From contig MU004201.1 of the NCBI GenBank assembly GCA_010093605.1, forward strand, positions 248,001 through 312,000: a stretch of DNA of 64,000 nt, given 5' to 3'. Shown here piece by piece: positions 12,162 to 64,000 of this stretch. Origin of the DNA: Lophium mytilinum (lineage: Eukaryota). The notes beneath the pieces were generated by a model. The model was not told where the DNA came from. It searched no databases and was given only the letters and a program-made list of their open reading frames with translations. How positions within the stretch are numbered: position 1 is the stretch's first letter; every line of letters begins with the position of its first letter. A program made the translations under genes and the position numbers.

Positions 12162-12166
12162 TTACT

Positions 12167-12386
12167 TATCATGGCCGTAACGCGACTTCTATCGCGATAC
12201 GTTCCTAACACACGTAACGGCGTTACGTGCCCTCTAGCACGTGATCACCGTCACATAACCAGGCTTAGCGCCAGCCTCGCCTACCTCTTAGCCGGCGCTC
12301 CGCGCCCTCCTCTCTCCCTTATAGTTACTTCGTCTATATATACTAATATTAGGTCTTCTCTTACAATCTACTATTACACCGTAATA
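12167..12386 (+). repeat. 5' LTR of B
   Basis: Matches 20213-20432 and is homologous to the E LTRs. Confidence 0.95.
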
Positions 12387-20212: not shown

Positions 20213-20432
20213 TATTATAGCTGTAACGCGACTTCTATCGCGATACGTTCCTAATATATGTAACGGCGTTACGTGCCCTCTAGCACGTGATTACCGTCAC
20301 ATGACCAGGCTTGGCGCCAGCCTCGCCTACCTCTCGGCCGGCGCTCCGCGCCCTCCTCTCTCTCTTGTAGTTACTTCGTCTGTATATACTAATATTAGGT
20401 CTTCTCTTATAATTTACTATTGCACTATAATA
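20213..20432 (+). repeat. 3' LTR of B
   Basis: Follows the PPT and is followed by TSD TTACT. Confidence 0.95.
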
Positions 20433-21195
20433 TTACTTAACTTCTATAGATATCTTAATATCGCGCATAGCTAGTTTATAGAGGTAGATAGGTACGTTAC
20501 TTATCTATATAGCTACAACCTAGAGGTACTTAGAATAGAGTAGAAAGTTCTTGCTAGTATTAGTAAGGTTAGCAGCGACGTATTAAGGTAAGTTGTTAAG
20601 CTAGTCTCCTTTAATAGCGGCCATGCGGCGTATAGTAAGGTAAGCTATAACGCCTATTCTCTATATAGAGTTTATAGAGTTAGAGGGTGTTAGAGTATAT
20701 TTATAGTTATATATAAAATCTAGTAGAGCTAACCCTTTAGTATAGGTAATAGCGCTATTAGTATTATCTATATAGTAATATTAATGTATATAGAAGATTC
20801 TATTATATTTATCTTTTGCAAAGCTAATCTTACTAGTAATCTAGTTAATAGCTAGGTTATAATGTTGGAACTAGCGGAGGCCTAGAATAATATTATAATT
20901 GCTAAGGTTAGTAGTATAAGCCTATTTACGGCTCTAGTAGCCTTAAATAGTAATAGGGATAAGAGCTTTATAAGTAATCTTTTTAGCAATAGTAGAGCTA
21001 TTAGCTAATTTAAGTATTTATAATTTAGGCAAGAAATAGGTAGGGAAGTTTATTTAGTGCGCATAAGCAGTATCTATAAATTTATTAGTTGCTCTAGTAT
21101 AGCTATAAAGGTATTCTTTAATTATATCTAGTAGTTAATCTTTATAGAAACGCTAGACCTTTACTAGTACTAGAAAGCTATAGAGGGTCTTTTTA

Positions 21196-23975: not shown

Positions 23976-24075
23976 GTTAATAGCCGGCGGGGTAATAGTA
24001 AGGATGTTTTTATTATTTATAGGGTTGTAGGTTAAGGACTTAGTAGATTAGTAGCTAGGTAGAGCAACTTTATAG

Positions 24076-24277
24076 TATTATAGACTATAAAAGGCACGGC
24101 ACGGAGCATAGTATTAAATAAGGAACAGAGTGTATTTATAAAGATAAAGTCGCGTACAGGTAGAGATTCTACGCGGCGCAGGCTAAATACAGGCTAAAGG
24201 TGTAAAACCGCGCTAGCGCACGGGCTTATATAATGTAGCCGAGAGCATATAATATATGCGGAGCTAAATTAGTTATA
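24076..24277 (-). repeat. 5' LTR of D1 (~202 bp)
   Basis: Reverse-complement match to 51986-52187. Homology with D2 ends at 24277. Confidence 0.8.
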
Positions 24278-25781
24278 ATAGCTATATTATATATAGATTA
24301 GAAGAGGGGTAATAAAGTTAAGTATAATATCTATCTAGTAGTAGTTAGTAATAGGGAGAGGCTTAAGAAGGCTATACTTTCTAGTATAGATATGCTTTAT
24401 TATTTTATATATTATGCAGGCGCTAATATAGCGGTCTATATTATAGGTTATACCTAGCTAGAAGTAGAAACGGGTAATACGTGTATAGGTAGAAGTAGTA
24501 CCTCTATAGCTTATATATCTTAGATTATATATATATTAGATAGCTTTTATATAGAGGTTCTTATTAATAGGGATATATAGCTAGCCGCAAATATATATAA
24601 CGCTTCTAATAATCTTATAGTTATATAGCTTAAGGCGTAACTTATATTCTTTGTAGAGGGCGCGGGGTAATTAGCGTACTCTATTAGCTCTAGTATTAAT
24701 AATAGCTTAAGTAATTAGATTTATTTACTATTTAATCTAAATATCTTCTATAATAGCTTTACCCGTGTTAGAAGAGTCCTCTAATAACTTACCTCCTTCT
24801 ATCTAATGTCGCTAACGCTAAGTATCTAATGCTTTCCTAGCGCCGTCCGGTTTAGTAAGCTTAGCGTCTTAGCTATAGCCGTTGTCTCCTATATTCTTAG
24901 TAGTTATTAGATACTAAGTATACTTTATCTTTTAAATATCTTCTAACTTGCTAATTACGTATAAGGCTATTGCTAGCTTAATTATAGAAGTTGTAACTTT
25001 ATTACTAGTAAGAATCGCGGTAAGGTTAATAGCGTAGTCTATACCTAGTTCTAGATATTCTAATTTAAGTATAGTCTAGTAGTTAACCTTAAGATAATTA
25101 TTATAAAGGTCTTCTATAATATCTCCTAAATAACGCGTAAGGCTATTAGTAACTGTATTATCTTTACTAGCTTACTAAGAGAGCTTAAATTAAATTTAGA
25201 GGGGAACTCAGCCTAGTAAGCCTATTATTATTTAAGTTGCTTACTAGTTATAAAGTACTATAAGTTCTTATAGTTAGTAAATACTTTAAAACTAGTCTAT
25301 AGGCCTAATAGCTTAGGCTGCTATTCTTTAGAGGTATATATAATTACTAGTAGTTTCTTATTATAAATCTAGTAGTTAATTTACTAAAAAGTTATTTTAT
25401 GCAATATAAAGGTAATATAGTAGAGCTCGCTATTAGCTTAAATTTATAATAATATAGCTCTAGTAGCTCTATTACATGCATTAGCGTATATATAGGTTTC
25501 TAATATCGGGCTAAAGTAAGTAATAATAGGTGCGTTATAGAGAGCGTTTTTAATAGCTTAGAAATAGCGCTATTATATAGAGTTAGTAGGCTATAGAAAT
25601 ATAAAATAAACTTTAGAAGATATTAGTATTATTAACGGGCTAGATATATTAGAAAATAGGCTTATAAAGCGCCTATAGAAGTTATAGAACTTTAGAAAAG
25701 TTTTAATATTTTTTTAGTTTTTATAGAGTAGGCTATTTAAGAATAGTTTTAATTTTATCCGGGTCTATTTTAATTCTATTA
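24278..25781 (-). pseudogene. Gypsy pol fragment I (RT end, RNase H, integrase N-terminus); host of D1
   Basis: Minus-strand IDPDKIKTIL.*P...FL.FYNFYRRF, RNase H motifs, HHCC region and DIILNFITPL. Confidence 0.82.
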
Positions 25782-33820: not shown

Positions 33821-36800
33821 TTCTAATAATTTATTAATATAGCTCTCTATAAGTATCTTAATAAGTACGTTATAGCTTACCTTAGTAATATTCTCGTTTA
33901 CAGTAATAGCGTAGAAGAATAATAAGAATATATTAAAGCGGTTCTAACTAGGCTATAAGAATCCGGCCTCTACGCCAATATTAACAAGAGCGAGGTCCAC
34001 GTTATAGGAGTAAAGTTTCTCAGTCTTATTATCTCCACAAATAGAATAAAGATGGACCCTGTAAAGCTAGAAGCTATCTATAATTAGTAGGTCCCTTAAA
34101 TAGTAATAGGAGTCTTAGAATTCCGAAGTTTTACTAGATTCTATTAATAGTTTATTGCCGGATACTTATTAATAGCCCGCTCTCTTACTAACTCGGTAAA
34201 AGGAACCGGACCCTTAAGGGGGAAGCTAATTAAGGTTATTATTACTCTAGAATTTAAAGCTACTTTCTAAAAGCTAAAAGACGCCTTTAAAGGTAATTAA
34301 ATCCTTATACCTTTTAACCCTAATAAGATAATGTACGTCTTCTATAATAGCTTAGAATAGGCTATAGAAGGAATACTAAAGTAGAAAGGGGCCGATAGTA
34401 TTCTATACTCTATAGTCTTCTTCGCTAAGAAGTATAGCCCTGCAGAGTCTAACTATAATATCTATAACTAAGAACTAATAGCTATTATTTAAGCTTCTAA
34501 GGAGTTCCGGCCGAAACTTATAAGTATTAACCCTAAGAATCCTATTTAAGTTATTACTAACTATAAGAACCTAGAATCTTTTATAACTAATAAGTAGCGT
34601 AGCCGCCGGTAGGCTAGATAGAGCCTATTTCTTTCCCAGTTTAACTTTAAGATTCTCTATTAACCTGGGATGGAAAACGTTAAAGCTAATACTCTTTCCC
34701 GGAAGAAATAAGATATACTAGCAGGCGCAGATAATAGTAGGCTTACAGTAAACTATTAGGCTATCCTTAAGCTATATAACCTAGCTAAAGGAATAAAGCC
34801 GTTTGCGCCTAAGGAAGCTATTATTACTGCACTTACTATACTTTCCCTTAGCACTAAAGATAATTAGCTAGACAACTACGTTACTAATAATACTATTAAT
34901 ATTATACGCCTCTATCTAATAGAAGAAGGGGACAATAATAAAGAAGATAACTCTAAAGAGAGCATTAATTAAAAATCTACCTTAGTAGAACCCCTAGAAC
35001 TAGATAGACCGCCTATAGTAGAGCTAATAGCTACTGCCTACGCAGAAGATAAGATCTCTAAGGAGATCTTCCGCATACTAGAGGACCCTACAGGCTCCCA
35101 ACGCTGCATGCCTAAGTAGTTACTTAAAGCTAGATACTACTTCTCTCTAGCTAACTATGCTATCTAAGGATTATAGACTAATATAGTAGATAACCATTAA
35201 CTTCTAGTTAATAGAAAGGTCTTTATTTCTAGTAATAAGCCTCTACAACGCTAACTATATATAGAATAGTATAATTACCCTACTACAGGATATAAGGGGT
35301 ATAAGCGTATATATTTTACTCTTATCTAGTACTACTACTAGCTATATATAGTAAAGGAAATTAACTAGTTCTATAATAACTATACTATCTACTACTATTC
35401 TAAGTACTCCTAAGATAAGAAATATAGTTTCTTAAGGCCCCTACCTATCCCAAATAAGCGCTAGCAGTATCTTAGTATTAACTATATTATTGCTCTACCT
35501 AAATACATCTATAGAGGTATTATATATAAGCATATTATAGTAGTCTATATTAGACTAACTAAACGCTGCTACTTTATTCCTATAGATAGCCTTAGCTCTA
35601 AGGCTCTTATATAAGCCTTCCTTCCTATCTTTATACTTTATAGAGTCTTAGTCTATCCTCTCTAATAGAGGAAGTAACTTTATCTCTAAGTTTTAGAGAT
35701 GGCTCTACTAACGCCTAGGAATCTCTCTTAAGATATCTACCGCCTTCCACCTAGAAATAGATGGTTAAACTAAATATTCTAACTAAGAACTTAAAGAATA
35801 TCTTTAGAAATATATTAATTACGCATAAGATAACTAGGTAGACTAGCTATCTATTGCGGAATTCTAAGTAAATAATACTATTTATGCCTCTACTAGTATA
35901 ACGCTCTTTTTTATAGATACGGGCTACTACCCTAGCACCGGCCTTAAACTAGCTACCGCTGTTAATCTAGATCTAAGTAGTAGAGGTAAGGAAGAAATAT
36001 AGATTGCTAATAATATTACTATATCTATAGAGAACCTTACTTAAGTTCTTTAAGAGAATCTAGCTTAGGCTTAGAAATAATAAGCTAAGTACGCTAATAT
36101 ACACTAAGCAGATGCTCTACTATTTAAGATAGGAGACCTAGTCTATATCGATACTAGGAACTAGAAAACAGAATAACTAGCTAAGAAACTTAGTAATAAG
36201 TACGCCGGCCCTTACCCTATTATCTATATTATACTAGAAAGTAAAGCTATATAAGTATAGCTTCCTAAACATCTTAAAGTAGAAGGGATATTTAATATCT
36301 TCTACTTTAACCTTCTACGCTTATATAAGCCCGACTCTATTCCATTATAGACTTAACCTAAACTATAACCTATCTATATAGTTTAGAATAAAAAAATAAA
36401 GACGCAAAAAGAAGAGTACCTTATAGATAAGATTATAGATAGCCGCTATATTAGATAAGGAGTTTAATATAAGATTAAGTAGGTAGATAATTCTAAGTAC
36501 TACTAGAAGCCTTCTAAGACGTATATTAACTACTATAACGCTTAGTTATTCTACTAGAAGTACCCGCGTAAGCCCCGCCCGCCCACCTAAGTTCTACCGC
36601 CCGGTTAGATACCCTAGAAGGAGGATTAAGATAATTTTTATAGTATTAGCAGTATGCAGCTAGCTAGATTAGGCTGGAGAAACGCTTGCATAGTTAATTT
36701 AGTTTATAACCTTCTTTCCTTAGCTACTCCTTATAGGAGCTTAGACTTAAAGGAAAGAAAGGTAGTATTAGGCCTTATAAGGCCTTTTCCTTTATTTATT

Positions 36801-36970: not shown

Positions 36971-39900
36971 AGTCTTTATAAAAGTAGTATATTTTAAGTT
37001 TAAAGAAATTATCTATTTAGTAATACTATATTTAAATACTATGTAGTAGTATAAGATTTATTTTTATAAAGTAATCTACTTCTAGTAACTATAAAGACCT
37101 TCTTAGGAGTTATATATTATAAAAGAATCTAATAACTAATATAGCTATTTAATACCTTCTTAAATAGGTTAGTTTAAGATAAACTACTATATATATATAT
37201 AATAGCGGCTATACTATTATATTAGAAAATATTAGTTATAATAATTACTTTATGAATATACTAATAGCTCTATAACTACTTTAATAGAGAGTTTTCTTTT
37301 CCTTATAAAATAGTTATTTAAATATTCTTTTTAAACTAAATCTATTTATAATATAATCTAAATATTAAAATATTAATTAGCTAGAAATATACTATGAAAA
37401 GCAATACTAGAGTAATTAAATCTTTTTAGATTAAAGGTAAGGTATATAGAAAGCGAAACAAGTTCTATAGAATAGTTATTAATTCGTAAAGTACTAATAA
37501 AGGTTTATTAGAGTATTCTATTAGAAACAACTACTTTAACTTTATTATAATCTTATCTATATTTTATAAATATATAATTAAGAAATTACACTTACACTAT
37601 AAATGCATTTTTTTCATATATTTCAATTAAAGTAATAGTATTACTAGTATATATAAAAGTGTATATAAATCTAGATATTAAAATCTAGATTGAAACTTAA
37701 CTACCTAGAAATATTAGAAGCTTCTCCTTTATTAAATCTATAGACTATTATACTTAAAAACCATATTTTCTAGCGTTATGTATACTATTTGTCTAGTTCT
37801 ATTAATAGTGTCTGGTAGGGTTGGCCTCCTAGCAGATAAATAATAGAATTAAACCATACTTACTATTACTATAAAAAATCATTTCCTATATAATTAGACA
37901 ATTTCTATCCTTTTTATTGGATTCTAAAGCTTTTATATAAGCTATTCTATACACATTTATCACTCAATAAAATCTAAATAGTAAGTTATAAGTTTTAGAT
38001 AGTTTCTTAATACTAATAGAATCTATATAGGTATTAAAATAACTAATATATCTACAACTATCTTCCCCTTAAGAATCCTAGTAATAAAGCTATTCTAAAA
38101 TGCATATAATAATGAAAGAAAATGCAGAATCTACTTTATCTCTATATACTTATTCATACTCATACTATATATAACTATAATTTAAAATAAAATATTTTAA
38201 AGTATATACTTATTAGATTGGGTTCTATAAAAACTTATTCTTTAAGTAATAAAATATATATAGTATTTATAGTATAAAAGCTATAGTAGTTATTTAGATA
38301 AAGCTATATACTTTTAAATACTTATAGAAAAGAATAAAAATAAATTTCAAGTAAGCTAATTTATACCTATTAAGTAAAAGCACTTAGCTAATATATATAG
38401 ATTATTCCTATTAGTTTAAATTCAACCGTTCTTCTCTTAAATACATATTATAATCTAGTTTATAACAAAGTTATTTAAAATAAAACCTAGCATATAGTAT
38501 AATAATCTAAAACTACTTATAATATATTAGACTAATTTTAATTATAGTACTTTAAGTAGACAGTTTATATAGATACTCTTAGTACATAGTATAGAGTAAT
38601 AGAATAGCTCTAGTAAAGAAGAGAATTACTAAGTTAAAATAAAAAGCTTAGGTAATTAAAAGACTTTTAATAAGAGATAGATACTTTTACACTTATATAG
38701 AACTATTTAAATAAAACGTCTTAATATATTTAGTATATATATACATAATAATCTAGTAGAAGAAAGGGTTTTATAGCTACTTTAAATAAGCTAACCTAAT
38801 GCTACAACTACTATTACAATCCTAAGAATAACCTATAAAACCCTTTCTTCTTCNNNNNNNNNNNNNNNNNNNNNNNNNNNNNNNNNNNNNNNNNNNNNNN
38901 NNNNNNNNNNNNNNNNNNNNNNNNNNNNNNNNNNNNNNNNNNNNNNNNNNNNNNNNNNNNNNNNNNNNACTATCCACTATTTAAAATCTTAGTATACTAG
39001 TATTATTCTTAGCATGTATACTTAATATTTAATACTATTTATAATATAGAGCTAGTAGTTCTATTACTTTACTATACTATTAGGGGTTAAGATTAGAACG
39101 TTAGAATACTACATTAGATAGTCTTAACATTAATAAAAGATAAATATAGTAGAGAAAGAGGTTCCTAGAACAGAAGTTATTATAACCTAACAGCCGGAGT
39201 ACTATTCATCTATTCTATAGAACTTCTATCATTTAACTTCTACTTATATACTCTAGAGTATATATTTATTTATAATATTTAATACTACTATCTATTTATC
39301 TATCTAGAATTCTAATAAGATTATGTATACCTATACTATATATATAAGTATTCTATAAAGTTAGTAAGATAAATAGATATACTAGTTCTTGAGAGTAGTA
39401 ATTTATATAAACTATAAAAGTTATATAGTAATATATATTAGTTATAGAAGAAAAATGTAATTATATTTATAGTATCTTAGAAATATAACCTAGAAAGTGC
39501 CTCTAGGCCCTACTTAAGGCCCTTTAGATAACTATACGCTCTCTTAAAGTACTATAAATAGTGCTAGTAGTATTATAGTAGGTTAATATAATATAATATC
39601 TAAAACGTAGCTCTTCTAGGGCTAATATTAATAATAACTCTAATACTATCTAAAGTTCTTTAAGAATGCCTACTAAAGCATCTAAAATACCTCTAAAAAG
39701 TCTAGAATATATAGATTTAACCATAGATAAAGCTACTTTCTCCCATTTATTTTTATTTATTACATTCTATTATACTAGTGTAGCTTCTATTAGAGTCTAT
39801 ATAGCTGTTCTATCTAGGCTCATTTATAAGGGGAAACTGTTTGCTGCCAGGTAGCATTTAGGTAAAAACCTTATCTTCTATTATATCTACCGCGGAGCGC

Positions 39901-45000: not shown

Positions 45001-48000
45001 ATAATACTATTACCTACTATATTACTAATACTAGATAATATAATATAATCCTAGGCATGCCCTAGCTCTAGCTTTATAACCCTACTCTTAGTTTTAGGAA
45101 AACGTAACTTATCTTCTAATCCGACTACTGCATGTCTAACTGCCTCTATTACAGTAGGCTAGTTATTGTAAAGAGCCTTATTTATTTAAAATATATTAAA
45201 TTAAACTATACTAGAACCTAGGCGATTTCTACGGCTCCTAATATAACCCTAACTCTAACCCTAACTCTAATTCTAATTCTAACCTTAGCCCGGCTATTAA
45301 AGGCCCCGACGACGCGGAGGATTCCCCTTAGCTTAATTATAATAGTAGGCCTCTTCTACCTAAACTAGTTTTACTAGACAAGCCACTAGCATATAATATC
45401 TAGTTTATCTCCGTGTACGCCTGTTCCACTATAGCTAAACGCAATAAAGACGCCGTAATAACTATTACTTTACGAGACTTTAAGTAACTAGATTAACTAC
45501 TAGATACTAATAAACAACACGCGTACGGGCGATAGGTAGTAAACCTAGCAGGTGTTACTGCGGAGGACTACCGTTACTTTAAGGAAAAGATAATAAAGTT
45601 ACTATATATAAAGGATTAGCTTTAATAAAACATTCCTTCTTTCTTCTATTAGATTCTAGTCGTCTTTAATCTATAGGCGGCTAATAAGCTGCCCCTATAT
45701 AGGCCTAGCGTAGACTATACTATTAATTTTAAAGATCTAAATACAAAACTCCCTATCCTGCGCTAATACGGCCTCTCCTATAATAAACTTTAAGCAGTTA
45801 AAGCCTATATTAATAAGATGCTTAGTAAGAGCTTTATCTATCCTAGCATATCGCCCTTCGCAGCGCCTATTATTATTATCCGCAAGCTAGGCGGAGAACT
45901 CTGCATCTATATTAACTACCGCTTGCTAAATAAAATTATAATTAAGGATAGGAACGCCCCTTCTCTCCTACGCGATATAATTATGCAGCTCTGCAAAGCT
46001 AAAATATATTCCGTCTTTAACATTATTACCGCATTTAACAACATCCGCGTTAAGAATAGCAATTAGTATAAGATAGCCTTCCGTACTTAATATAGCGTCT
46101 TTAAATTTAACATTATACCCTTTAGCCTATGCAACGCTCCCGGTATATTCTTATTTTTTATTAACTCTATACTACGCCTATACCTAGATATCTACTATAT
46201 AGCTTATATAGATAACATTCTTATTTATAGTAATAATAAAAAAGATTATAAAAAGAACTATATAAACGTCCTTACAGTACTATATAACGCAGGACTCTTT
46301 CTTAACATTAATAAGTGTTATTTCTTAGTTAAACGCGTAAAGTATCTTGGACTTATTATTACGCCTAATAGCATAGAGATGGACCTAAATAAGGTTAGCG
46401 CTATCTAAGATTAGAAGCTGCCCCGTAACGTTAAGAATGTCTAATTATATCTAGGCTTCTATAATTTCTACTAATAATTTATTGCTAGTTATTCAAGGAT
46501 CGCCGCTCTACTAACTAAGCTTACTAAGAAAATAATGGAATAAGGTAGCTTTCCTCTACTTGCTAATAGTCTAGCAGCTTAAGCCTTTAAGAAACTTGAA
46601 GCCTCCTTCCTAATAGCCCCGGTCCTTGCTTATTTTGACCCTAATCTAGACTATATCCTTAAAACTGACGCCTTAGATTATATTATAGCCGCAATTCTTT
46701 TATAATATAAACTAGATAGAATCCTACGTCCTGTCGCCTTCTTCTTAAAGAAGATAACCCCTACTAAGTGTAATTATAAGATCTATAATGAAGAATTACT
46801 CGCTATTAGTTAAGCCCCTAAGAAATAGCAACCTAAGCTTACTAGTGTTATTAACCCTGCGCTTATACAAATAGACTATAAGAACCTAGAATACTTTATA
46901 TCTTCTAAGTAGTTAAATTGCCGTTAAGCCCGATAGGCTAAATACCTTTCTTAATTTAACTTTATCCTAAACTAGCGACCAGGCAAGTAGTTAACTAAGC
47001 CTAATAGCCTTACTCGCAGGCCTAGTAATATTCTAGATAATCTAAACAATTCTAGGATAATGTATTAAACATAAACTATATTAAAAAAGACGAACCTATT
47101 AAAAGAAATGTACTAAGCCCTCCAGCTCGCCAATATGCTCCTTAATAAATAGGAGGTTACTATTATCTAATTCGCCTAGCTAATATATAATGTTGCGGAG
47201 TAGCACCCTATAGATATTCTATACGTTGTTTTAGTAGCTAATAATACAAGAGGGAAGAAAAAGTATTTAACTAAGGCCGTAGCTAATTATAGTAAGTTAG
47301 ATAAAGATCTACAGGACGCTGCCTCTAAAGTTACAACGCCTATAGCTACTAACGGTTTACCTAAAGAAGGAGCGCCGGAAGTATCTAAACCTAGTAACAA
47401 GTTAGATAAGGACTTACTAGGGGACTATATTAACAACGCTACTATTTAGTAGATTAATTAAGCCTACATAGAGGATAATATCCTCTAGCGTATTATGCAC
47501 ACTAAAGAAACCGGTAAATAATAGATCCCGCTTAAACTTATTCGGAAACAGGGTATTAAGATTAAGCTTGGCGACTGCAAAACCTATAAAAATAGGCTAT
47601 TTATTAACGGCCGCTTATATGTGCCTTACGACGCAAAGCTCTATATGCAGTTAATTAAAGAAGCCTATAACTCTCTCCCTAGAGGCTATACTAGAAGGAA
47701 CTCCCTCTATTATCGCCTTTTTTCTTAGTACTACTAGCTAGGAATTATAAACTCTATTACTATATATATTAACGCCTGCCTTACATGCAGGCGCATAAAG
47801 GTCTATAAAGACGGCAGGCACAGTCTACTTAAACTGCTACTAATTCTAAATTAATCCTAGACGGATATATCTATTAATTTTATTACTAAGCTGCCCCCCT
47901 GCACTATTAAAGGGCGCATATACTAACACGTTATAGTAGTAGTTAACCGGCTCTCTAAGAAGCGCAAGTTTCTTCCTCTAGACTCTATAGAACTAGAAGA

Positions 48001-51421: not shown

Positions 51422-51985
51422 CTAGGGACCACGATATTAAGATTTAGGAAGGAGCTAAGCTTCCAGCCTGGAAGCCTTATCCTATATTCTACTTAGAGCT
51501 AGAAGCTGTCTAGTAGTATATCTCTAAGATAATAGTAAAAGGATTTATTAAACTAGCTTAAGGAGACCTTAGCTTACCCCTTCTTATTATTTAAAAGCCC
51601 GGAGGAGGCCTACGCATTTACGTTAATTACTAGGACCTTACTAATGCCACTATTAAGGATAGGTATCCTATTCCGCTAATCTAAGAGACCCTAGCTAGAC
51701 TATTAAAAGCTAAGATCTTTACTAAGATTAATATTATTACTGCTTTTAACCGGGTATAAATAAAGCCTGGAACTAAGTGGATAACAGCCTTCTTAACGCG
51801 GTACAGAATCTATTAATACTAAGTAATGCCCTTTACCCTCTGCAACGCCCCCGCTACCTTCTAATAATTTATTAATATAGCTCTCTATAAGTATCTTAAT
51901 AAGTATACTATAACCTACCTTAATAATATTATTATCTATAGTAATAGCATAGAAGAATATTAAGAATATATTAAAGCGGTTCTAA
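51422..51985 (+). pseudogene. RT N-terminal fragment G2 (same family as G1), lying between the LTRs of H and D2
   Basis: KPGGGLRIYVNY, DRYPIPLI, MPFTLCNAPATF. 51860-51985 is near-identical to 33821-33947. Confidence 0.85.
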
Positions 51986-52935
51986 TATAATAGATCTAGC
52001 TCCGCATATATTACGTGCCTTCGGCTATATTACATAAGCCCGTGCGCTAGCGCGGTTTTGCACCTCTAGCCTGTATTTAGCCTGCGCCGCGTAGAACCTC
52101 TACCTCCACGCAACTTTATCTTTATAAATACACCCTATTTCTTATATAATACTATACTCTATACCTTGCCTCTTATAGTCTATAATACTATAAAGTTGCT
52201 CTACCTAGCCACTGTTCTACTAAGTCCTTAGATAATAATCCGCTGCTAGTAAACTATAATACTCTATAATTACCCCGCGCGGCTATTAATACTATGGCCG
52301 ACGACTATAACTATAACCCTAAGCCCCTTAGTATAACTAGCATGTAAAAGCTCCGTAACCTCCTCTTATAGCGCGCTGTTCTTGTACCCTTAGACTTCTA
52401 GGCCTTAACTTAAGACTCCTAGAATACCGCCGAGGAATCCTAGATAATTACGAGAAACTCGCAGCGCGCGCGCAGCTACGACGACACTGAAGACAACGCC
52501 TTCCTTAAAGATAAACTTTAGGAACACCCCGATTAGCCTAACGCTAGTGGCCATATCTACTACCCTAAGATGCCCGGCGCCTTTAAGACTTCTATCCTTA
52601 AAGTAAATAAACTTGTTAATTACTCCGCTGTTAATAAATAAGACGCTAATAAAGCCCCTATTACCTATAAAGTCCCTAATGCTAAAGCTTTTATAGACTT
52701 TATTACTAAAGATAAGGTAATAGCGTTTAAATTAACCCGTTTATATAAAGCTAAGATCTATTAACTGCGCAACCGCCTAGAGCGTAATAAGGCCTCTATA
52801 GAGGCATAGGCTAAGCTTAATAAGTAAGCTTATAATATAATTTAGTGATAAAATAATCGCCTCTTAGCCGTAAAAGATAATATTAAGCAGCTTAAAAAGG
52901 CCATCGCCGATATAAAATTCTAATACGAATCTAAC

Positions 52936-53156
52936 TATCACGGTGCAATACGGGATCGTGATAGAAAACTAGATAGTATTGAGTATACAACGAAGTAGCT
53001 ATAAGGAGAGAGAGTAGGGCGCGGAGCGCCGGCCGAGAGGTAGGCGAGGCTGGCGCTAAGCGAGGTCAGGTGACGGTGGCACGTGATAGAGGCCACGTGA
53101 CACCGTTGCCTGTGACAGGAACGTATCGCGATAAGGGTCGCGTTACGGCCATAACA
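52936..53156 (-). repeat. 3' LTR of E
   Basis: Direct repeat of 60929-61149. Confidence 0.97.
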
Positions 53157-53434
53157 CTACCCCCCTCCGAAAGAAAGCTATATACGTGCAGCCTTCCTAT
53201 TTTAGTGTATATACTTGCCATAGGTTCTTCCAGTCTTGCAAAGGGTTATCGTTCTTCCGGATCGTTGTGGGCGCTTACCGAGCCTTAGATGTGAGGTCAG
53301 CAATACAGTTGATCTTACGTGCGTTACCAAGCTTCATCGCGCAGTCCACGCGGTGCGGCGTCGTCCGATTTGTACAAATCGGCAATAGCTCAGCCGGCCG
53401 GTGCTGGTTGAGTTGGCAAGGCAGGGGACGGGCG

Positions 53435-56400
53435 TCATCCGTAGAGCGTTGTCATGATTAGGGCGAGTAGTGGCTCCTAATGTTTAGGCTTCCGGAAGGA
53501 CTTATAAGGTCCTTTTGCTTTTGGGTAGGCGTGGTGATAGTCCATAACAATATCACGGCAGTCAGTGACACTGGTGTAGGATTCCTATTGAGGATTGGCG
53601 TTCCACTTGGGGTGACCGGTGTAAAGGATCTTATACTGAAGCAGGCCTTTTTAGTTTATAGCTGGGTCGAGCATGGCCTTGTTGATACGTAAGTCAACAA
53701 TTTCGTCGACGTCCCATTGCTTGTAGCCATCTTTATCTATTTTGACGGGTCTAGGTTCTTCCTGGATCTGGCCTTCCAACGGCTCGTGCGTGATGCGATG
53801 AAGTAGCTATGGGTGGAAGGCGTTAAATACTCCCTTTATAGTACGTAGGAGAGACAGCTTATAGGCGGCGTTGTTGATAACCCTGGTGACTTTAAATGGA
53901 CCGAGCTGTTTATGATCGAGTGACTTGTTCGGTCGTTGGGTCTTGATATTGCGTGCGTCCAACATGACTTGGTTACCGACTTTGAACTCTGTAGCTGGTT
54001 TTCGCTTGCGGTTGGCGAACTCTTCCTGTCTGGCTTGTACCCAAATCAATTTGTTACGGAGGAAGAGGCGGAGGTCGTTTAATCGCTCGGCGAGCGCATC
54101 GGCTTTCTCTCTGAGGGGCTTCTGTGGTCCTTTAGCTACGGAGTCGTTGGCTGGTTCAAGACCGGAGCGCGGATTGTACCCTTTTGTTGCAACGAAAGGA
54201 GAGACGCCGGTGGTTGTCTTGTCTAAATTCGCTTCGAATTCGGCAATAGGCAGGAGGTCGGCCCAGTTGTCTTGCTTATAATTGACATACGCGCGTAAAT
54301 ACTGTTTAAGGGCCATGTTGGCGATTTCCGTTTGTCCATCTATTTTAGGATGAAAAGCAGTGGAGAGCTTTGGCTTTGTTCCAACTCAAGCGCATAGCCG
54401 CTTCCAGAAGTGGGAGACGAATTGAGGGCCTTGATCCGAAACGATTAAGTACGGGTATCCTTCTTCTCGCCATATCCATTTGATAAACGCCTGGGCGATG
54501 TCCTCAGCCTCCATGGAGTCCATGGCGATGAACTTCCTCTTTTTCGAGAATTGGTTAACTACAACCATGATGTGTTTAAGCTTGCGACCCCATTGTTCGC
54601 AGATTGGCAGAGGAGTGATGAAGTCGACTGAAATATAGTGCCAGTATCGGTCTGGAATAGGCAGAGGGCGGAGTAGTCCTTGCTTGCCTTCACGGGAGTA
54701 TTTTGATCTCTTGCAAGCGAGACAGGCGCCGACATATTGGTCTATATAAGAGGTTATCTGTGGCTAGTAATAGTACTTACAGAGCCGTGCATAGGTTAAT
54801 GTTGTCCCGGCGTGTCCAGCGGGCTTCGGCTCGTGCATGGATCGGATGATATGAGTGCGCAGTTGCTTGATATCCGGAACGTAGAGCCGCTTACGGATGT
54901 AGAGGAGGTTGTCAACGACTTCGCAATCGCCTAGTTCTATTCGCAAGTGATGATCTCGACAGAATTGCGCAGGCAGTCGTTGTTGGTTGCGGCGCTTGGC
55001 GTATTTGACAGCTTGTACAACAGGGTCGCTTTTGGAGTGCTTTTGGATCCTTTGAAGAATTTGATCACCCGTGAGGACTGCTTTAGATGAATCATTTAGC
55101 TCATTATCTGCAGGCAGTTTCTCGACAGTGGAATTATATAGCTCATCCGCTGGGGGTGTCTTATCCTTCTTGGGGCGTCCTCGTGGGCGAGCTGGACCAG
55201 AGTCATTTATCTCGTCTGGTGTAGCTGCCGTTCGGGGCGTTTTCCTAGGGCGTCCTCTTGTGCGAACGCGCGGTCCAGAGTCATTTGGCTCATCTGGAAC
55301 GGCGGGCGGAGGGCGTATGCGCGTGACTGCTGCTAGGTGGACGTCGTCGTTGTCCGGGTAATTGAATTCACTGAAGTCGTATATTATCTCGGCCAGTTCG
55401 ACAGGGGTACATTCGAAGGTGTCGGTTAGGATGTGCGCGAGCTTGATGGCGTGATGCATTCCTGGTTCGTAATTGGATGGCTTTAGCATGACTTGTTCTT
55501 GACATTTGTACCTGTCATCTCCTGGGGCTGGCTCATTACCTGGTCGTTGAGTTAGCAGGTCGGGTTTCTTATTCTGCTTGCCTGGTTTATAGGTGATCTT
55601 AAAATTGAACTCGGCGAGGAACTTGGCCCAGCGAGCTTGTCGACGATTGAGGCGCTTGGAAGTCATGAACGTTTGAAGGTTCTTGTAATCTGAGATGACG
55701 TTAACGGGGCTATTGCACTCCTGTCCTTATCCAGCGAGTTCCGGTCTCTATTCTTTAAAGGCGAGTACTATGGCGAGGAGCTCTTTGTTGTAGATAGCGT
55801 AGTTAATTTATTGTGGTGTTATACGTCTTAACATGAAGGCGACTAGGCAAAGCGTTCCGTTGGGCTAGACCTGTAATAGCACGGCTGCAGTTGTATAGTT
55901 AGAGGAATCGCATTTAACCCAGGTGTCGTAGTCGGGGTTCCACAGTGCAAGCCATGGGGCTGCGCGAAAGCATTCCTTAACGTTGCGGAACGCTTTAGCT
56001 TCGTCACTGTCGTCTGGCCATGGGAACTTGAAGCCTTTTTAGACAGCTAATGTAAGCGTTGTTAATGGAGCTGTAAACGCGGAGTAATCAGCGATGAAGT
56101 GTCTATAGAAGTTGCAGAACCCAAGGAAAGCTTAAACGTCTTTGAGGTTTCGTGGCGTTGGCCAGTCTAACACTGTTTGGACCTTTGATGGGTCCATCCG
56201 AACGCCGTTAACGCCGACGAGGACACCGAGATATTTGACTTCGTCGACGGCGAACTCGCATTTGTGGATATCGAGGAACAGTCCGGCGTCGCGAAGCTTG
56301 GTGATAATTGTGAGGACGTGCTCTTTGTGTTCTTCTAGCGTGTTGCTGTATATTAGGACGTCGTCCATGTATGCAGTGCAGAAGTTGTTAAGGTATTTCC

Positions 56401-57946
56401 GTAAGGTATCATTAATATAGGCCTGGAAGGAACTAGGTGCATTATATAACCCGAACGGAAGTACTATAAATTTAAATAACCCCCAACGGGTGAGGAAGGC
56501 CGTCTTGTGCTCGTCGCCTTCCTTAATTCGTAGTGCGTTGAATGCGCTGATTACATCGAGCTTGGTGTAATACCTGGCTTTAGCTAATAAGGCGAGGGTG
56601 TCTTTAACGAGTGGTGGCACGTTGCGGCTCTTGACGCTAATTTCGTTAAGGCCGCGGTAATCAATGCAGACTCAAAGTCCTCCTCCTGGTTTCTTGACAA
56701 CTAGCGTAGGTGCAGCGTATAACAACAAGCTAGGGCGGATGAATTCTTTAGTGCGCATTTCGTCGACGAAGGCTTTAATAATGGCGGCTTGGTCTCTTAA
56801 GAGGCCGTATACCTTGCGAGCAGGTGGTTTAGAGCCGGGGAGGACGTCAATCGCGTGATCTATTAGCCTATGAGGTGGTAGTTTATTTGCTTCTTAAGGA
56901 TCCCATGCATTAGCTATGTAATGGAGCCAGTTAGGAAGTAAAGCTTTAATTTCCTAATTCGTGATAGGAGGGCGGTTCATTTTCTCAAAGAACTTGCGAT
57001 AGTCAGATGGGTCGATGGCGAAGATATTAGCGGTGAAAGCGGCTGTTTGTGCATCGTAGAGAACGTTATTAATTTTAGATAGGCCATACAGAGCTGGGTC
57101 TGCTTCCGGGGTGGATGTTTGTAGAGGATGAGTTGTGGGCTGAGGCCGATGGCGTTCGTGATCCTCCATTTGTTGTAGTTTTGTCTAATCGTCATCCTGG
57201 AGTTGGACGATATGGTCCTCTTTGCCATCGCGCTAGAGCTTTTAGCAGGCTGCCATTATGTTCTTTGCCTTGTCTAGTTCCAGGCCGAGTTTTCGATACT
57301 TGTTAAAGACTTCTTGAAGTGCGGTATTGTACATGCGCTTGCCCACTTAGGCGATGTTACGGTCTTTGCTATCGCTCTATACGCGTCTGCATCTATCTAT
57401 GTGTAGACAATAATTGTAGCAGAAGTCTTTGTTAAAATTAAGGGCGTGCTCGCCCTATATAATGCTAGGCTCGTGTTTCTTAAACCATAGTGTGCCTAGA
57501 ATGACATTGTAGCCTTTAAGGTCGGTGATATAACACTATATGTTCTCTGTGTGAGCTCCTAAGGACAGCGTAAGCTGGGCCTTATAGGTCACGAGCTTTA
57601 TGGGTATGCCGTTGGCTAAGCGTAGGGGAATAGGAGTGGCCAGCGGAAGTGTTATCAGCTTATTGGTTTTGGCGTACGATCGTGAGACGAAAGCGAAGCA
57701 GGAGCAGCCCGTGTCAGTAAGGCAGCGGCTGCTGGTCGTGCCGATAGGTGTATGAATTCTGCACTTGAAATTCAACTACTTACCGTGAGTGACGTCTTAG
57801 GTTAAGTCGGTGGAACAAGCTAATAGCTGGATTTCGCCGGGCTCTGGGGGCGGCCTTTCCAACTCTTGGATACGGGCCGTAATAGCACTTAGAAAGAATT
57901 CTGCATGGCTCTGTCCGTGACTATGGTTAGAGCCTACGCAAAACCC
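53435..57946 (-). pseudogene. E pol (PR-RT-RH-IN-chromodomain)
   Basis: ORF pieces give CLTDTGCS (protease), [12 protein letters not shown] (RT), IVSDQGPQF (integrase) and LGPFKV; chromodomain WDVDEIVD ~53520-53720. Confidence 0.95.
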
Positions 57947-60462
57947 TCTCCCTCGCTGTTGTTGTTGCTGCTGCTGTCGCTCAGGACGCTGGAAGATGAG
58001 ACTTCATCGGCGTGAGTGACGATAGCCAGGTCCTCTCTATCGCTGTTGATAGAGATTAGGTCGTCATCATCCTCGTCGGCGTAGCAGATTGCGGAAAGCT
58101 TAAGCTCGAGGCCACTGTCGGCTTTGGATAGGCGCTCGGTCAGCTTGCGCTTGGATAGAGGGGGGTTCTAAGCGCAAGGGCGCTTGGGGTTATTGGCTTG
58201 GTGACCCTTCTTAATGCAGTGGAAACAGTAGCCTTTAGTGCGCAGGACCGCTGTAACTGCGGGAGGGAGGTGAATAGGGCAGTTGCCCTGATCCTTGTTG
58301 TCGTCGCGAGTCGATGACTGTTGTGCGTAGCTCTGCTTGGGGCGGCGGTCTTGGTAGTTATTCAGTCGGTAATTACTTAAGCGGTTGTTGCGATAGCCAT
58401 TGCGGAAGCCGGTTGGTTAAGAGGGCTAAGTAGTTGCGTTACGCTAAGCGTTGTTCTAAAGGAAGGCTTTAGCGCGGAATACCGCAGCGACAAGCGTAGG
58501 CCAGTCTGGATAGCTATTGGCGCTGCCGAACACTTAGGCACTAAGGTCTGGGCGTAGAAGGCGTTCAAGCCATCCTTTCTTAGACGCGAAGGGCATCTAG
58601 TTCTCGTTGTTAATGTTAGTCATCTCTTTAAAACGTAGCATGTACATGTCCTATAACTCGCGGCCCTTTATCTTTGCTTTAGGGCTGTAGAGGATATTAT
58701 CTATATGCGCAGGCTTGTTAAAGATAGTAAAATATAGGTCCATGTACGCAAACATCTGGTCAAGAGTTGTAAAGTTCTTGTTTAGCAAGGGCTTCTCGAA
58801 CTGGGTGTAGCTGCGGATGGTTGCTTCTGCGTAATCGACGCAGTATAACTTAACGTATTCCATCTTGCTCTGCTTATCTGGGTAGGCCAGCCCTTTATGT
58901 CGGAAGACAGCGTAGGCATGGCTCTTCTAAGATAGGTATCGGTGTTTGTCGCTCTTGCCAGCGAATTCCCAGAGGTTACGGAATTTAGGTTTATGGTCTC
59001 CGTGGAGTTGCAGGCGCGCGAGCTGAGTCATGGCATTATTATCTGTGACAGCGAAGTCGTCGCGATCAGCGTCGTCATCGTTGTTGTCTCCTGAGTTGTA
59101 GTTGAGGTCGCCTGCGGCGGCGGCGGCGGCGCGACGTAACTGTGCAGGCGCTGATGCTGCTTTTCGGTTTACTTTTAAGTCAGTGTACTGCCGCTTGTAT
59201 GTAAGGCCAAGTTCTTTAAAGTGATCGCGCTGGGTTTGTAGTTAATCTGAATCCCATTGTGCTGTGGCGACGTCCTGACGGAGGGCTTTATTTTCCAAGC
59301 GTGCCTCGCCTAGCAGGAGGATTTTGGCTTCGTAAGCTTTCCGTTCAGTCGTGAACTGGCGGTTGTGCTTAGTGTACGCCTTCTCGTTCTCTAATTAAAG
59401 ACGCGCAATGTCTTTAGTTAGTTGGGTGACTTTGGCTTACAGGCGTAAGATCTTATCGGGGTCCTGAGCTTGGTTACGAAGGGTAGTTAGCTCGGCGTCT
59501 CGGGCTCGGCAATCCTCTTGAAGAGATTCTAGGTTCTGCTAGAACGTAGCGACTCCATGGTACATGTCTTTATAGTATTTAGGAACTGCGTTACGGAACG
59601 CTTTGGCAGAGTCGAGATTAATGTCAACGGCGTTGGCGACTCCATCGCGGTTGACGTGGAACGTAATTCCTTCGGCTGTTGTGGCGAAGTACGACTTGCG
59701 GCGGCTGGAGTTGCGGCGTGCTGGGCCTGGTGTAGGCGATTCTAGGTTAGGCCGTGATGGCATAGCTGTGGTGGAGGGACTCTGCGCTGATGGGGGTGGG
59801 TTGTCTGTGCGTTCCTCAGTGCGCTGGGCTTCCTAAGTGAATGGAAGGACTAGGCTGGCAGGAACGTTGTCGTTCTGTACGTTAAGGAGGTCGCCTTAAG
59901 CGAAGTGGACTACTTTCCGGAGGTCTGTGGCTGACTAGAATTGGGTGTTGTCGTCTTCTTCGTTAAGTTCGTCGAGCTCCTGGTCTAGTTGTTCGTTGTC
60001 TTCCTCGTCGGAGGTAATACGGAACTCTTCGTCCTCTAGGTCGAGAGAGCGCTTGCTGCGCTGGAGGATAGTAGTTGGCTGGAGGCGGCTGTAGGCTGCG
60101 GCTGCACCTGGTCCAATAGTACCAGCCTTTAGTGTGTGGAGTTTGTTGCGAGCGGCTAGCTGCTCTAGGGTAGAACTGACACCGTACTGAGATAATTTAC
60201 CTGCCTTTTTGCGTAAGGCTTTGGCGTGTCGGGTCTCTCGTGCTTACTAAGAGTTAGAGGCCAGTGTTGACTGGGTGGCTTGGCTGTTAAGGGTAGGGTA
60301 TAGGTTAGTGTTGCCACTCTTGTCGGCGTGTACGCCGCCAGAGGGAGCTTCTAAATGCGCTGCAGCGTGTTTACCGCGACTCGGTGTTGCAGGCGGTTAA
60401 TTCTACTTGTGGGGTCTTAAATGAGGAGGGACTGGTGTTAGGGGGTTGCGCTAGTCAACCAT
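57934..60462 (-). pseudogene. E gag (~843 codons, RIP stops)
   Basis: ATG 60462 is in frame with ORF pieces 59539-59763 and 58651-58863 and with TAG 57934-57936. Knuckle CFHCIKKGHQANNPKRPC ~58175-58228. Confidence 0.85.
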
Positions 60463-60928
60463 TGCTAGTTAGGTAATGGTGGATAGTGTCCTGGTAGGTG
60501 GACGATAGTCCGGGTAGTGGGACGGAGAAAAAGATTAATATAGGTAGAAAGGTTGTAGGGCCTTCGTGAGAGCTAGTAAGTAGACGTAGCTGGTGCGCTC
60601 CTTGGCGGCCTTTCTTGGCGGCGGAGTTGATCAGTGAATGACTGCGCTTGGTTTGGTTAGTTTGCGCATGCGCGTGCGGGTAGGGGCGCAACAGCAAGCA
60701 GGTTTATAGGGCCTGCGCGTTGGTTTGTATGCACAACGGGGTGTAGCGTCCTTGCTATGAGGTTGTAGGGCCTCCTGAGGTTGTAGGGTCTCCTTCCGTT
60801 TCGGTTCCTTGTTAATGAAGGTCACGGGAATCAAATTTTAGTAGCTGTAGGGGCGCCGGTATGTATGTATATAGGTAGAGAAAGAGTGCTTCCGATGTCT
60901 TCTGGAAGCTAGGAGGGTAGCTACTTTA

Positions 60929-61149
60929 TATCACGGTGCAATACGGGATCGTGATAGAAAACTAGATAGTATTAAGTATACAACGAAGTAGCTATAAGGA
61001 GAGAGAGTAGGGCGCGGAGCGCCGGCCGAGAGGTAGGCGAGGCTGGCGCTAAGCGAGGTTAGGTGACGGTGGCACGTGATAGAGGCCACGTGACACCGTT
61101 GCCTGTGACAGGAACGTATCGCGATAAGGGTCGCGTTACGGCCATGACA
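60929..61149 (-). repeat. 5' LTR of E
   Basis: Minus strand TGTCATGG...CCGTGATA. Confidence 0.97.
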
Positions 61150-64000
61150 CTAACATTATTAAAGCTAAAGAGGATCGGGACTAGGCCTTTAATAACCGCG
61201 ATAATGCTATCTAAGATAGAGATAACGCTATCTACGCTAGAAACCTTAAGAATAAAATTATATATAAACACGTCGCTAATATAGCAGCGTTTACCGCCTA
61301 GATAGATACTATTAACGCAATAGCTACTAACTATATTACTAAGCTTAAAGCCTATAGCAAAGCTTTAGCTAAGCGTATTACTAAGCTTAAAGCCTATATT
61401 AAGAACGTTAAAAAAGCTCTTACTACTACTAAAGTCTATATTAACAGCCTCTAGAATACTACTATCTACAGTTCTACTATCCGCGGCCCTATAGCCCGTA
61501 CTAATAGCCTACCCCCTAATAAGATTACTACGCAACTCGCCGCTACTATAAGCTATTAATGTAAGCTTATAGCCTATATTATAGCTAAAGAAGGCGCTAA
61601 GCTAGAACTACGCCCTTCTATTCTACCGGGCCGTAATTATTTACGCGGCCGCGACCGCCAGCAACGCGAACCCTCGCCACCCCGCCGCCCTAATAAACAG
61701 GACCATGTGCGCTCCACCGGGGGCGGCGGCAAACCCCCCTCTAATTCCAGCAACAGTAATAATAATAAGGACTCCCGTAACCGCAATCTAATTTACGCCC
61801 CTTAACCGCGCACACCGCTTTATATAGGACTAGACGGCGCTTTACTACCTCTATATAATATTAATTATAGAACCCGCGCCGATTAAAATAAAGACAAGAC
61901 TATACCACACCCCCCTAAGTATAATAGCGATAAGGCTAAGTATATTACCTAGCGCTACTAGGTTCTTAGCAAGTTTAACTACGGTAGCTGCCTCTATTGC
62001 TATAATAAAGGCTTCCGCCTTTACTTCCTTAGCATATGCCTTACTAGCACCCCCCTTAGTAACTACGTAGCGCGGATAATAGGCTATTAGCCCTTTTACA
62101 CCCTAGATAAAGCTATTAAGTATCTTAACGTTAAAAACCTGCTGCACAACCCTAAAGCTCTTACTTCTTAGCAACTTAACTAGTTAATATAGGGCAATAA
62201 TAACCTTAATATATTCTACGCAAAATACTAAGCGCTTATAGTATAACTGCTAAAGCAAGAATACTATTAGAATGTTACCGCGCTTAAGGTAAAGATCCGC
62301 CCCGGTATTACTAAGCCTGCGGGCGTTCTAGGAAAATAATACAAGAAAGAATATAAAGTTATTAACGCTTACTGCACCTAGCTCCTTAATTAGGCTTTAG
62401 TAGACTATACCCAGCCCCGCCGATAATATAATAACTAGCCCGGATAGTATGGCTAGCAGCCTAACTCCTAAACTAATAGCTGCCGCGGTGGCTACCGCGG
62501 CAACCGCCTATAGAACCCCCCTAACTAGACCCTTATAGGTTAGTTTTAAGCCACCTAGAACTAGGTCTCTTAGAATACTTAAAACTAAGGCTACTAGAAC
62601 AACTAAAGCTAAGGATAAGCCTAGAATATAATAAATGCGCCTAGCTAGAATTGCTAGATGTCCGCACTACAGACACGTAAAGTCACAAACTTCCCTGTTA
62701 GCGTTCCCGCTAATTAGCAGCGCCTAGCTCTAAGCCGTCTTATAGATAACTAAAAGCGTTAGCTTATAAATAAGAACTGTTACTTCTACTACTAACTTGT
62801 TAGCTGTACCTCTACTAACTAGCAGTACTCTATAGAGCGTTCTATACTCGCCCTATAAGGCGTTAGCACGTACCCTAATAATATTATAACTCTAGCCCTA
62901 GCCCCGTCTATAATATACGCCCTGTCTACTTACGCGGCCCTATCTATATACGCTCTATCTACCTACACGCCTACTATGTTTACTCTAGCTCCTACTAAAG
63001 TGGGTATTAACACTTCTATCTTATCTAGAGGCGCCGGAGGACCGTTTATAGGTTACGGCCAACCCTAAAATTAGAGCCAACCCTACTTAGAAAATGCTCG
63101 GTCCTAGATTATAGTCGCGATCTAGGGCGTATTTTTACTTAAGCAGTCTAATACTATAAAAATAAAGAATCCACACAGTTATAGTTAAGAAGGTTAGTTA
63201 TTCTAGCTGCCTCTCTTAGTAATAATGTTTAAGCGGGTTAAACTAATAAAAAGACCCTCTATAGCTTTCTAGTACTAGTAAAGATCTAGCGTTTCTATAA
63301 AGAACAACTACTAGATATAATTAAAGAACACCTTTACAGCGACACTAGAGTAGCTAATAAATTTATAGATACTACTTATGCGCACTAAATAAACTTCCCT
63401 ACCCGCCCCTTACCTAAATTACAAATACTTGAATTAGCTAACGGCTCTGCCGTCGCTAAAAAGATTACCCATGAAGCTCTTATTCCCATCGCTATTTAAG
63501 GCTATTAGAGCCGCAAATAGGCCTATATTACCGACCTCGGCGACTATAATATTATCTTAGGCCTCCGCTAGTTCTAGCGCTACAACCCGGCTATTAACTA
63601 GGTTACCGGCAAGATTAACTTTATAAAAAAGAAATATAATAGGATTTTCTATCCATATTACTGTTACTATATAAACAGCACTAATAGCGCTATTACCTAC
63701 GTAAAAGGCTTAGCACTACCTAATTTTATATATAATTATAATATTATACAGCCTTCTAATTCTATAGACTCTGCGCAATGTATAGGCGTTACAGCCTACC
63801 TTACTATGCGCCGTATAGCCGCTGTTAAAGAAGACTAACTTAATAATTTACCTTAACACGTCGCAGCCGACCTCGCTAATACCTGCAAGGATTTCCTAAC
63901 TTGTTCAAATCACCTCCAGGTCGTAGCTATGCAAACGAGCAACGTACCCGTTTACCTCCGCAAACTAGCTATACGCGATATTAAGAAGTTTATAGAAGTT

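Follow-up and report, generated by a model that had tools for sequence, protein, structure and literature searches.

The choice of integration sites by long terminal repeat (LTR) retrotransposons is, to our knowledge, understood for no more than a few systems. Pol III genes are the targets of Ty1 and Ty3, Ty5 is directed via Sir4, Tf1 goes to promoters, and elements with chromodomains go to heterochromatin. In the portion of PMC5053271 drawn on here, the chromodomains of chromoviruses are described as reading histone marks and steering integration, with Gao et al. 2008 cited there on fungal chromoviruses such as MAGGY, and LEDGF/p75 is described as a combination of a PWWP domain, AT-hooks and an integrase-binding domain. 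Likewise, portions of PMC7544195 and PMC10349943 describe how the Neurospora HCHC complex reaches AT-rich heterochromatin through the AT-hooks of CHAP and the binding of HP1 to histone H3 trimethylated at lysine 9 (H3K9me3). In a full-text literature search, judged by titles and abstract openings, no paper was found on an AT-hook in the Pol polyprotein of an LTR retrotransposon. Here, we describe a pair of AT-hook motifs in the Pol of element E, a Ty3/gypsy LTR retrotransposon located in a stretch of 64,000 nucleotides from the fungus Lophium mytilinum (assembly GCA_010093605.1, contig MU004201.1, positions 248,001 to 312,000 of the forward strand). This whole stretch is referred to as the window, and all positions are those of the window.

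As shown in Table 1, the two motifs, TRGRPRK (hook 1) and RPRGRPKK (hook 2), are encoded on the minus strand, in an open reading frame (ORF) that extends from stop to stop over 54764-55726 (320 amino acids, aa) and comprises 300 aa when it is read from the first methionine at 55666. Translation of the plus strand of 54764-55666 gives a stop-filled frame. A preliminary description of the same DNA had placed both motifs at exactly these positions within a 300-aa ORF at 54764-55666, leaving the strand unstated. The RGRP cores occupy ORF residues 157-160 and 182-185, 25 residues apart, and the hooks together span residues 156-187. Each hook is preceded by an acidic core, PDE(P/I)NDSGP, which starts at residue 144 for hook 1 and at residue 170 for hook 2.

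The invariant RGRP core of AT-hooks (PF02178, HMGA-type) occurs twice, and its contexts, RVRT-RGRP-RKTPR and ARP-RGRP-KKDK, have basic residues and proline on both sides, as is characteristic of AT-hooks. AT_hook is the sole Pfam family reported for the hook segment, with two stretches, a score of 13.6 bits and an E-value of 0.064. By these sequence criteria, the pair is classified as genuine AT-hooks, and the hook strings presumably resemble those of HMGA1.

The direct alignment of the DNA shows that the two hooks belong to a tandem duplication of approximately 75 nt, each module encoding approximately 25 aa and containing one acidic core, one hook and a tail, which is in agreement with the duplicated PDE.NDSGP modules of the preliminary description. 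The duplication was unreported by Tandem Repeats Finder. Because the duplication produced hook 2, this hook is not an independent event. Over the 15 codons of the cores (PDExNDSGP and RGRPxK), module 1 and module 2 differ by six synonymous and two non-synonymous changes (P/I and R/K), whereas the spacers that separate and follow the cores have diverged by replacements and by insertions and deletions. The difference between cores and spacers is suggestive of constraint on the acidic core and the hook, in a tiny sample. The creation of the hook motif by repeat-induced point mutation (RIP) is unlikely; the codons of hook 2, CGA GGA CGC CCC, are not visible C-to-T or G-to-A products of a non-hook sequence.

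The RGRP core is rare both in the window and among the relatives of element E. It occurs four times among the 127,996 six-frame residues of the window, where two occurrences are the hooks and the other two lie within stop-riddled frames. A word-indexed protein search returned 46 long relatives, the best of which shares 52% identity over 39% of the query, while the full-coverage matches share 34-37%; an exhaustive representative search gave 4926 proteins at E ≤ 0.001, 150 of which are listed. We fetched 192 distinct relatives, and 135 of them span both the end of RNase H and the start of integrase. Neither RGRP nor even GRP is present in the RNase H-integrase linker of any of these 135 proteins, and the core is also absent from the linker of a sister element in the window, element B, so that the expected conservation of RGRP in the family of E and B was not found. 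In the full 192 relatives (121,486 residues), RGRP occurs three times, always outside the linker and without basic flanks, which corresponds to 0.004 expected occurrences per linker of 165 aa, and the stricter pattern RGRP[RK][RKG] does not occur.

The linker itself is hypervariable in the 135 relatives, ranging from 0 to 269 aa with a median of 60 aa and a median net charge of −4, and its net charge is positive in 14 of them only; the linker of element E has 165 aa and a net charge of −6. Aligned with its 14 closest relatives, element E shows the hook modules as an insertion within an otherwise acidic variable stretch. When hook-segment residues 138-200 were compared with longer proteins of a 5.8-billion-protein collection, 186 candidates and no match at E ≤ 10 were obtained, and residues 100-235 compared with shorter proteins of the same collection gave eight candidates and no match at E ≤ 1. 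The 320-aa ORF gave 146 pattern matches among metagenome contigs and 20 among viral contigs, none of which was confirmed by tblastn. On this comparison of sequences, the hook pair is lineage-specific and unique among all those retrieved.

Element B shares 49% aa identity with element E over the hook ORF. As the preliminary description had stated, it contains acidic modules of the DE..DS type without RGRP, and these read PDEIKDSG...RDKIKDS at 18060-18119. Element B is heavily RIPped, and its LTR repeats, at 12167-12396 and 20213-20442 on the plus strand, are 90% identical. Alignments of the DNA of E and B across the hooks, both ordinary and RIP-aware, gave no unambiguous history with respect to a gain in E versus a loss in B. 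As a whole, element B (12160-20442, plus strand) has a GC content of 0.42 and LTRs of 90% identity, versus 0.50 and 98.7% for element E. No matching target-site duplication (TSD) was recognised for element B, the flanks of which read TGCGG and CTTAA.

Table 1. Positions in the window of element E, its hook modules and Pol domains, and the compared sites in D1 and element B.
Feature	Position	Strand	Basis and remarks
AT-hook 1, TRGRPRK	55241-55261	-	Motif scan; one of two Pfam AT_hook stretches
AT-hook 2, RPRGRPKK	55166-55189	-	Motif scan; the better of the two Pfam AT_hook stretches, at residues 51-61 of the 80-aa query
Module 1 (acidic core PDEPNDSGP, hook 1, tail)	55220-55297	-	DNA alignment
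Module 2 (acidic core PDEINDSGP, hook 2, tail)	55148-55219	-	Tandem duplicate of module 1
Predicted disordered linker with both hooks	55070-55366	-	AlphaFold2, ORF residues 121-219
Element E, complete Ty3/gypsy LTR retrotransposon	52936-61149	-	LTR pair, Pol domain order, GC 0.50; about 8.2 kb; nested within AT-rich DNA
5' LTR of E (element orientation)	60929-61149	-	Direct repeat, 3 nt trimmed by the TSD
3' LTR of E	52936-53156	-	Purine-rich tract GGAGGGGGG just before it (element orientation)
TSD CTAAC, left copy	52931-52935		Flank comparison
TSD CTAAC, right copy	61150-61154		Flank comparison
Pol frame of E (PR-RT-RNase H-linker-IN-chromo-like tail)	53404-58003	-	Single frame, 25 in-frame stops
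Reverse transcriptase, RVT_1	56222-56695	-	Pfam, Pol residues 437-594, E-value 1.7e-28
C-terminal end of RNase H, RT_RNaseH	55607-55711	-	Pfam, ORF residues 6-40
Helical/beta domain with a confident fold, immediately before the zinc finger	54869-55069	-	ORF residues 220-286, pLDDT 90-95; region kept in relatives
Integrase zinc-binding domain, Integrase_H2C2	54698-54868	-	Pfam; broken by the stop at 54764-54766
Integrase catalytic core, rve	54347-54634	-	Pfam
Integrase SH3_Tf2-1 domain	53795-53977	-	Pfam
Chromodomain-like C-terminal tail	53483-53737	-	Aligned to the Chromo-scoring region of relatives; two in-frame stops
Unoccupied paralogous target site in D1	23319-23322	-	CGAT between the flank alignments; 5-nt site CCGAT where D2 has CTAAC
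Element B, two DE.KDS acidic cores without hooks	18060-18119	+	PDEIKDSG...RDKIKDS

The hooks lie between the Pfam domains RT_RNaseH, which ends at ORF residue 40, and Integrase_H2C2, which starts at residue 287; their assignment to the RNase H-integrase linker in the preliminary description was therefore correct. In the AlphaFold2 model of the ORF, built with 20 relatives, residues 90-120 form two helices with a predicted local distance difference test score (pLDDT) of 60-72. Residues 121-219 show no secondary structure, and their pLDDT means over 10 residues are 45-50, which is consistent with the disorder typical of AT-hooks. Residues 220-300 form a confident fold with a pLDDT of 90-95 that runs into the zinc finger, and we read the predicted domain at residues 220-286 as an N-terminal extension of the integrase. 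Because of these zones, the hooks are predicted to be within a disordered tether of approximately 100 aa directly upstream of the integrase. With Foldseek, no PDB structure matched the model at E ≤ 0.001, the model being mostly disordered linker and little informative, and the best score among the ESM Atlas features of residues 135-215, 0.76, was at chance level.

The mature protein that carries the hooks was considered on the basis of Ty3. The 320-aa ORF gave no match at E ≤ 1 to PDB sequences with phmmer, and the relative P0001 was used in its place for the PDB comparison. The best match of P0001 is the Ty3 Gag-Pol polyprotein 7Q5B (E-value 1.8e-126), and the Ty3 reverse transcriptase crystal chain 4OL8 was also matched. 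The chain of 4OL8 (478 aa) stops directly after RNase H, at approximately residue 1011 of the 1547-residue Ty3 polyprotein, which corresponds to approximately residue 62 of the ORF of element E. The remaining 536 residues of the Ty3 polyprotein presumably fit the larger Ty3 integrase species of approximately 61 kDa. Since the Ty3 reverse transcriptase chain ends right after RNase H, the whole linker and the hooks would go with the integrase, and by this analogy the hooks are probably located on the N-terminal tail of the integrase.

Element E has the LTR pair, the TSD and the order of protease, reverse transcriptase, RNase H and integrase (PR-RT-RNase H-IN) of a Ty3/gypsy element. The direct repeat of its LTRs is 224 nt long (52936-53159 versus 60929-61152) with 98.66% identity, and the bounds in Table 1 were set because the flanks then give the 5-bp TSD CTAAC. 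The Pfam domains RVT_1, RT_RNaseH, Integrase_H2C2, rve and SH3_Tf2-1 follow one another in one frame from 58003 downward. The in-frame stops of Pol consist of 13 TAG, 9 TAA and 3 TGA codons, and there is no frameshift from the protease to the tail. Element E is a young Ty3/gypsy element, probably of the chromovirus type, that was mutated though recently inserted, and it is dead. The nonsense mutations alone inactivate Pol, in a pattern that fits light RIP and not ordinary decay, and the hook-bearing piece of 320 aa is the longest stop-free part of Pol. Ahead of the protease region, close to where the read-through of the Pol frame begins, seven consecutive glutamines (QQQQQQQ) are encoded at 57950-57975 (minus strand).

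Element E was found only in the sequencing runs X1 and X2, which come from the same sample, probably the source, and are not independent; no RNA run was among the sequencing runs found to contain it. In the data of this sole sample, the interior of element E is represented by one unique contig with zero mismatches, and most of the differences in the other copies of the family in the contigs of the sample are of the RIP-like types C>T (242) and G>A (389). From this comparison, element E is the least-mutated copy of the family seen. The hook region has one more, diverged copy in a contig of 772 nt (record 3 of X1), which covers 55127-55265 with 25 differences and two gaps. A contig of run X3, which has a different organism code (B) under the species label of X1 and is guessed to be RNA, matches 71 nt of the LTR of element E (53081-53151) with 12 differences, after which its sequence is unrelated; another strain or species may be the source of this related LTR.

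The preliminary description had also stated that the Pol of element E ends in a chromodomain. This is borne out only in part. The tail can be aligned to the regions of two relatives that score as Chromo, that of P0004 with 33.7 bits, above the cutoff of 25.1 bits, and that of P0001 with 23.5 bits, below it. When the tail itself was searched against Pfam with its two stops read as X, no family, Chromo included, was reported at E ≤ 10. Judging from its sequence, the putative chromodomain of element E is too degraded or too divergent for Pfam.

The insertion site was reconstructed from the host element of E, D2 (51982-52931 and 61155-63200, plus strand), and from a paralogue of D2 in the same window, D1 (21242-24281, minus strand), which are 81-85% identical. 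The flanks of element E are contiguous in D1, where the left flank corresponds to 24281-23323 and the right flank to 23318-21242. The empty site of D1 reads ...AAATC CGAT ATTATT..., and D2 has the same length when element E and one copy of the TSD are removed. Two RIP-type transitions, one C to T and one G to A, are common to both TSD copies and absent from D1. Because both copies carry them, the two transitions predate the insertion. The target, very AT-rich in its immediate surroundings, had thus been mutated by RIP before element E arrived, which dates the insertion after the RIP of D2 and supports both the placement of E inside a degraded D2 and the already-RIPped target of the preliminary description. 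A contig bridging 52931 to 61155, with CGAT between, was considered as an independent empty site and was rejected because its sequence is the same as that of D1.

The GC content of element E is 0.50, versus 0.28-0.42 in its flanks; directly beside the insertion, the first 20 nt on the two sides have values of 0.15 and 0.25, and the first 100 nt have 0.28 and 0.36. The window as a whole shows a sharp composition boundary between a block with a GC content of 0.53-0.56 (1001-8000) and an AT-rich nest of transposable elements (TEs) with a GC content of 0.29-0.44 (9001-52000). The minimum, 0.18-0.20, is at 37001-39000, and the appearance is isochore-like, as in RIP-affected fungal genomes. The AT-rich part also contains distant fragments of gypsy-type RNase H or integrase at 46874-47734 and 34538-34795 on the plus strand and at 10714-10887 and 24461-24691 on the minus strand, with 28-48% aa identity to the hook ORF. 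D itself may be of the gypsy type, since the fragment at 24461-24691 adjoins D1.

Compared with fungal chromoviruses such as MAGGY, element E likewise has LTRs, a 5-bp TSD, the PR-RT-RNase H-IN order, H2C2, rve and SH3_Tf2-1 domains and a tail at the chromodomain position, and it also resides in heterochromatin-like, AT-rich, RIPped DNA. It differs by the two AT-hooks of the linker and by a chromodomain that Pfam does not detect. With the HMGA-type AT-hook proteins, the segment shares an RGRP core with Arg, Lys and Pro on its sides, more than one hook per chain, disorder and adjacent acidic stretches; however, the hooks of element E are situated in a retrotransposon polyprotein and not in an architectural protein of chromatin, and their Pfam score is below the cutoff. 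LEDGF/p75, in the portion of PMC5053271 mentioned above, similarly joins AT-hooks to a reader of chromatin marks, and the combination guides an integrase to chromatin of a particular kind; it is a host cofactor that acts in trans and leads to active genes, whereas the readers of element E would be in cis on Pol and would lead to silent AT-rich DNA. The same pair of readers, AT-hook and chromodomain, is found in the Neurospora complex of HP1, CDP-2, HDA-1 and CHAP, as far as it is described in the portions of PMC7544195 and PMC10349943 drawn on here, but HCHC is a host silencing complex with its readers on separate subunits, element E is a mobile element, and no homology of HCHC to the hook segment was found.

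Our preferred reading, which is held tentatively and at less than even confidence, is that the hooks are an accessory tether to AT-rich DNA on the integrase, working with the chromodomain-like tail toward RIPped DNA. A module of approximately 25 aa, consisting of the acidic PDExNDSGP core and one AT-hook, would have arisen in the lineage of element E within the segment, disordered and hypervariable, that separates RNase H from the N-terminal extension of the integrase, and would then have been duplicated in tandem. Like HMGA-type hooks, the pair would engage AT tracts bivalently through the minor groove. Were Pol processed as that of Ty3 is, right after RNase H, the hooks would form a flexible N-terminal tail of the integrase and would add a reader of DNA composition to the C-terminal chromodomain-like histone reader, so that the intasome would be tethered to, or biased toward, AT-rich heterochromatin generated by RIP. 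The preliminary description had likewise suggested an AT-hook reader combined with a chromodomain reader, an interpretation that the present results support in part. The logic of two readers has a host precedent because HCHC pairs the AT-hooks of CHAP with HP1, and the tethering has a precedent in LEDGF/p75, which contains AT-hooks, and in the chromodomains of chromoviruses, which steer integration.

Several results weigh against the tether. Its basis is a single dead copy, a cleavage site placed by analogy with Ty3, the linker of which has no sequence-level alignment to that of element E, and a genomic context common to hook-less relatives. The AT_hook score is below the Pfam gathering cutoff of 17.4 bits, for a model that is only 13 positions long and gives low scores to many true short hooks, and Chromo does not match the tail. 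The absence of the motif from element B and from the 135 linkers belongs here as well, and so does the hypervariability of the linker, as neutral insertions accumulate in such settings. Site preference is judged from the single insertion of element E, a sample of one, and nearly every insertion into a compartment of nested TEs falls in AT-rich DNA. The flanks of the hook-less element B, with a GC content of 0.30-0.40, are as AT-rich as those of element E, with 0.15-0.42; because element B is in AT-rich DNA too, elements with and without hooks are not separated by their positions. The hook-less elements of the family have evidently also spread.

Almost as likely as the AT-DNA tether, although itself a possibility well short of even, is that the hooks are a neutral, lineage-specific insertion, which arose in a permissive disordered spacer by chance and replication slippage and has no biological effect. 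The variation of the linker in length and composition, the absence of the hooks from all the relatives and from element B, the origin of hook 2 as a by-product of the duplication and the Pfam score under the cutoff are all consistent with such an insertion, and, since the scan was very large, a motif as rare as this one is expected somewhere. However, both hooks keep the canonical R/P-RGRP-K/R-K form, and the changes in their cores are synonymous or conservative while the spacers have diverged. A basic insert is also unusual in a linker that is mostly acidic among the relatives. Furthermore, from the established biophysics of AT-hooks, a basic-flanked RGRP in a disordered chain would be expected to bind AT-rich DNA, whether or not it was selected to do so.

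A less probable explanation is that the basic clusters are a nuclear localisation signal, or a general patch of the pre-integration complex for binding nucleic acid or cDNA ends, and not a reader of the target. Fungal LTR elements need active nuclear import, the strings RVRTRGRPRK and RPRGRPKKDK are dense in Lys and Arg (6 of 10 residues basic), and in the AlphaFold2 model they lie in an exposed disordered tail beside the integrase. However, a window with 5 of 10 basic residues is present in the linkers of only 4 of the 135 relatives, which indicates that the import signal of the family is elsewhere and that a new one is unneeded, and the RGRP core with its Gly and Pro, unneeded for nuclear localisation, is exact in both copies. 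It is very doubtful that the protease cuts downstream of the hooks, leaving them on the C-terminus of RT-RNase H or in a discarded spacer where their affinity for DNA serves reverse transcription or nothing: the two helices at residues 90-120 follow RNase H and are kept in relatives, so that RT-RNase H may reach further than that of Ty3, and, speculatively, the repeated PDExNDSGP cores could be processing sites, but the Ty3 chain ends right after RNase H, and the hook segment is contiguous with the well-folded N-terminal extension of the integrase.

If the hooks are a neutral insertion, the finding is a caution that perfect short linear motifs arise in hypervariable polyprotein linkers. If the tether is real, a pair of AT-hooks encoded in cis with an integrase would represent a targeting module both new and very simple, and a natural counterpart of the engineered fusions of an integrase with a DNA-binding peptide that redirect integration. 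In a more far-reaching form, which we regard as unlikely, a retroelement lineage would have gained in cis on its integrase the two readers of host silencing, AT-hooks for the AT "scar" of RIP and a chromodomain for H3K9me3, and new copies would be led to dead RIPped repeats as a safe haven; a retroelement integrase would then, for the first time, include its own reader of DNA composition. The AT-DNA tether would tie integration directly to the base-composition signature of RIP and could help to explain the self-reinforcing growth of AT-rich, TE-nested compartments in fungal genomes.

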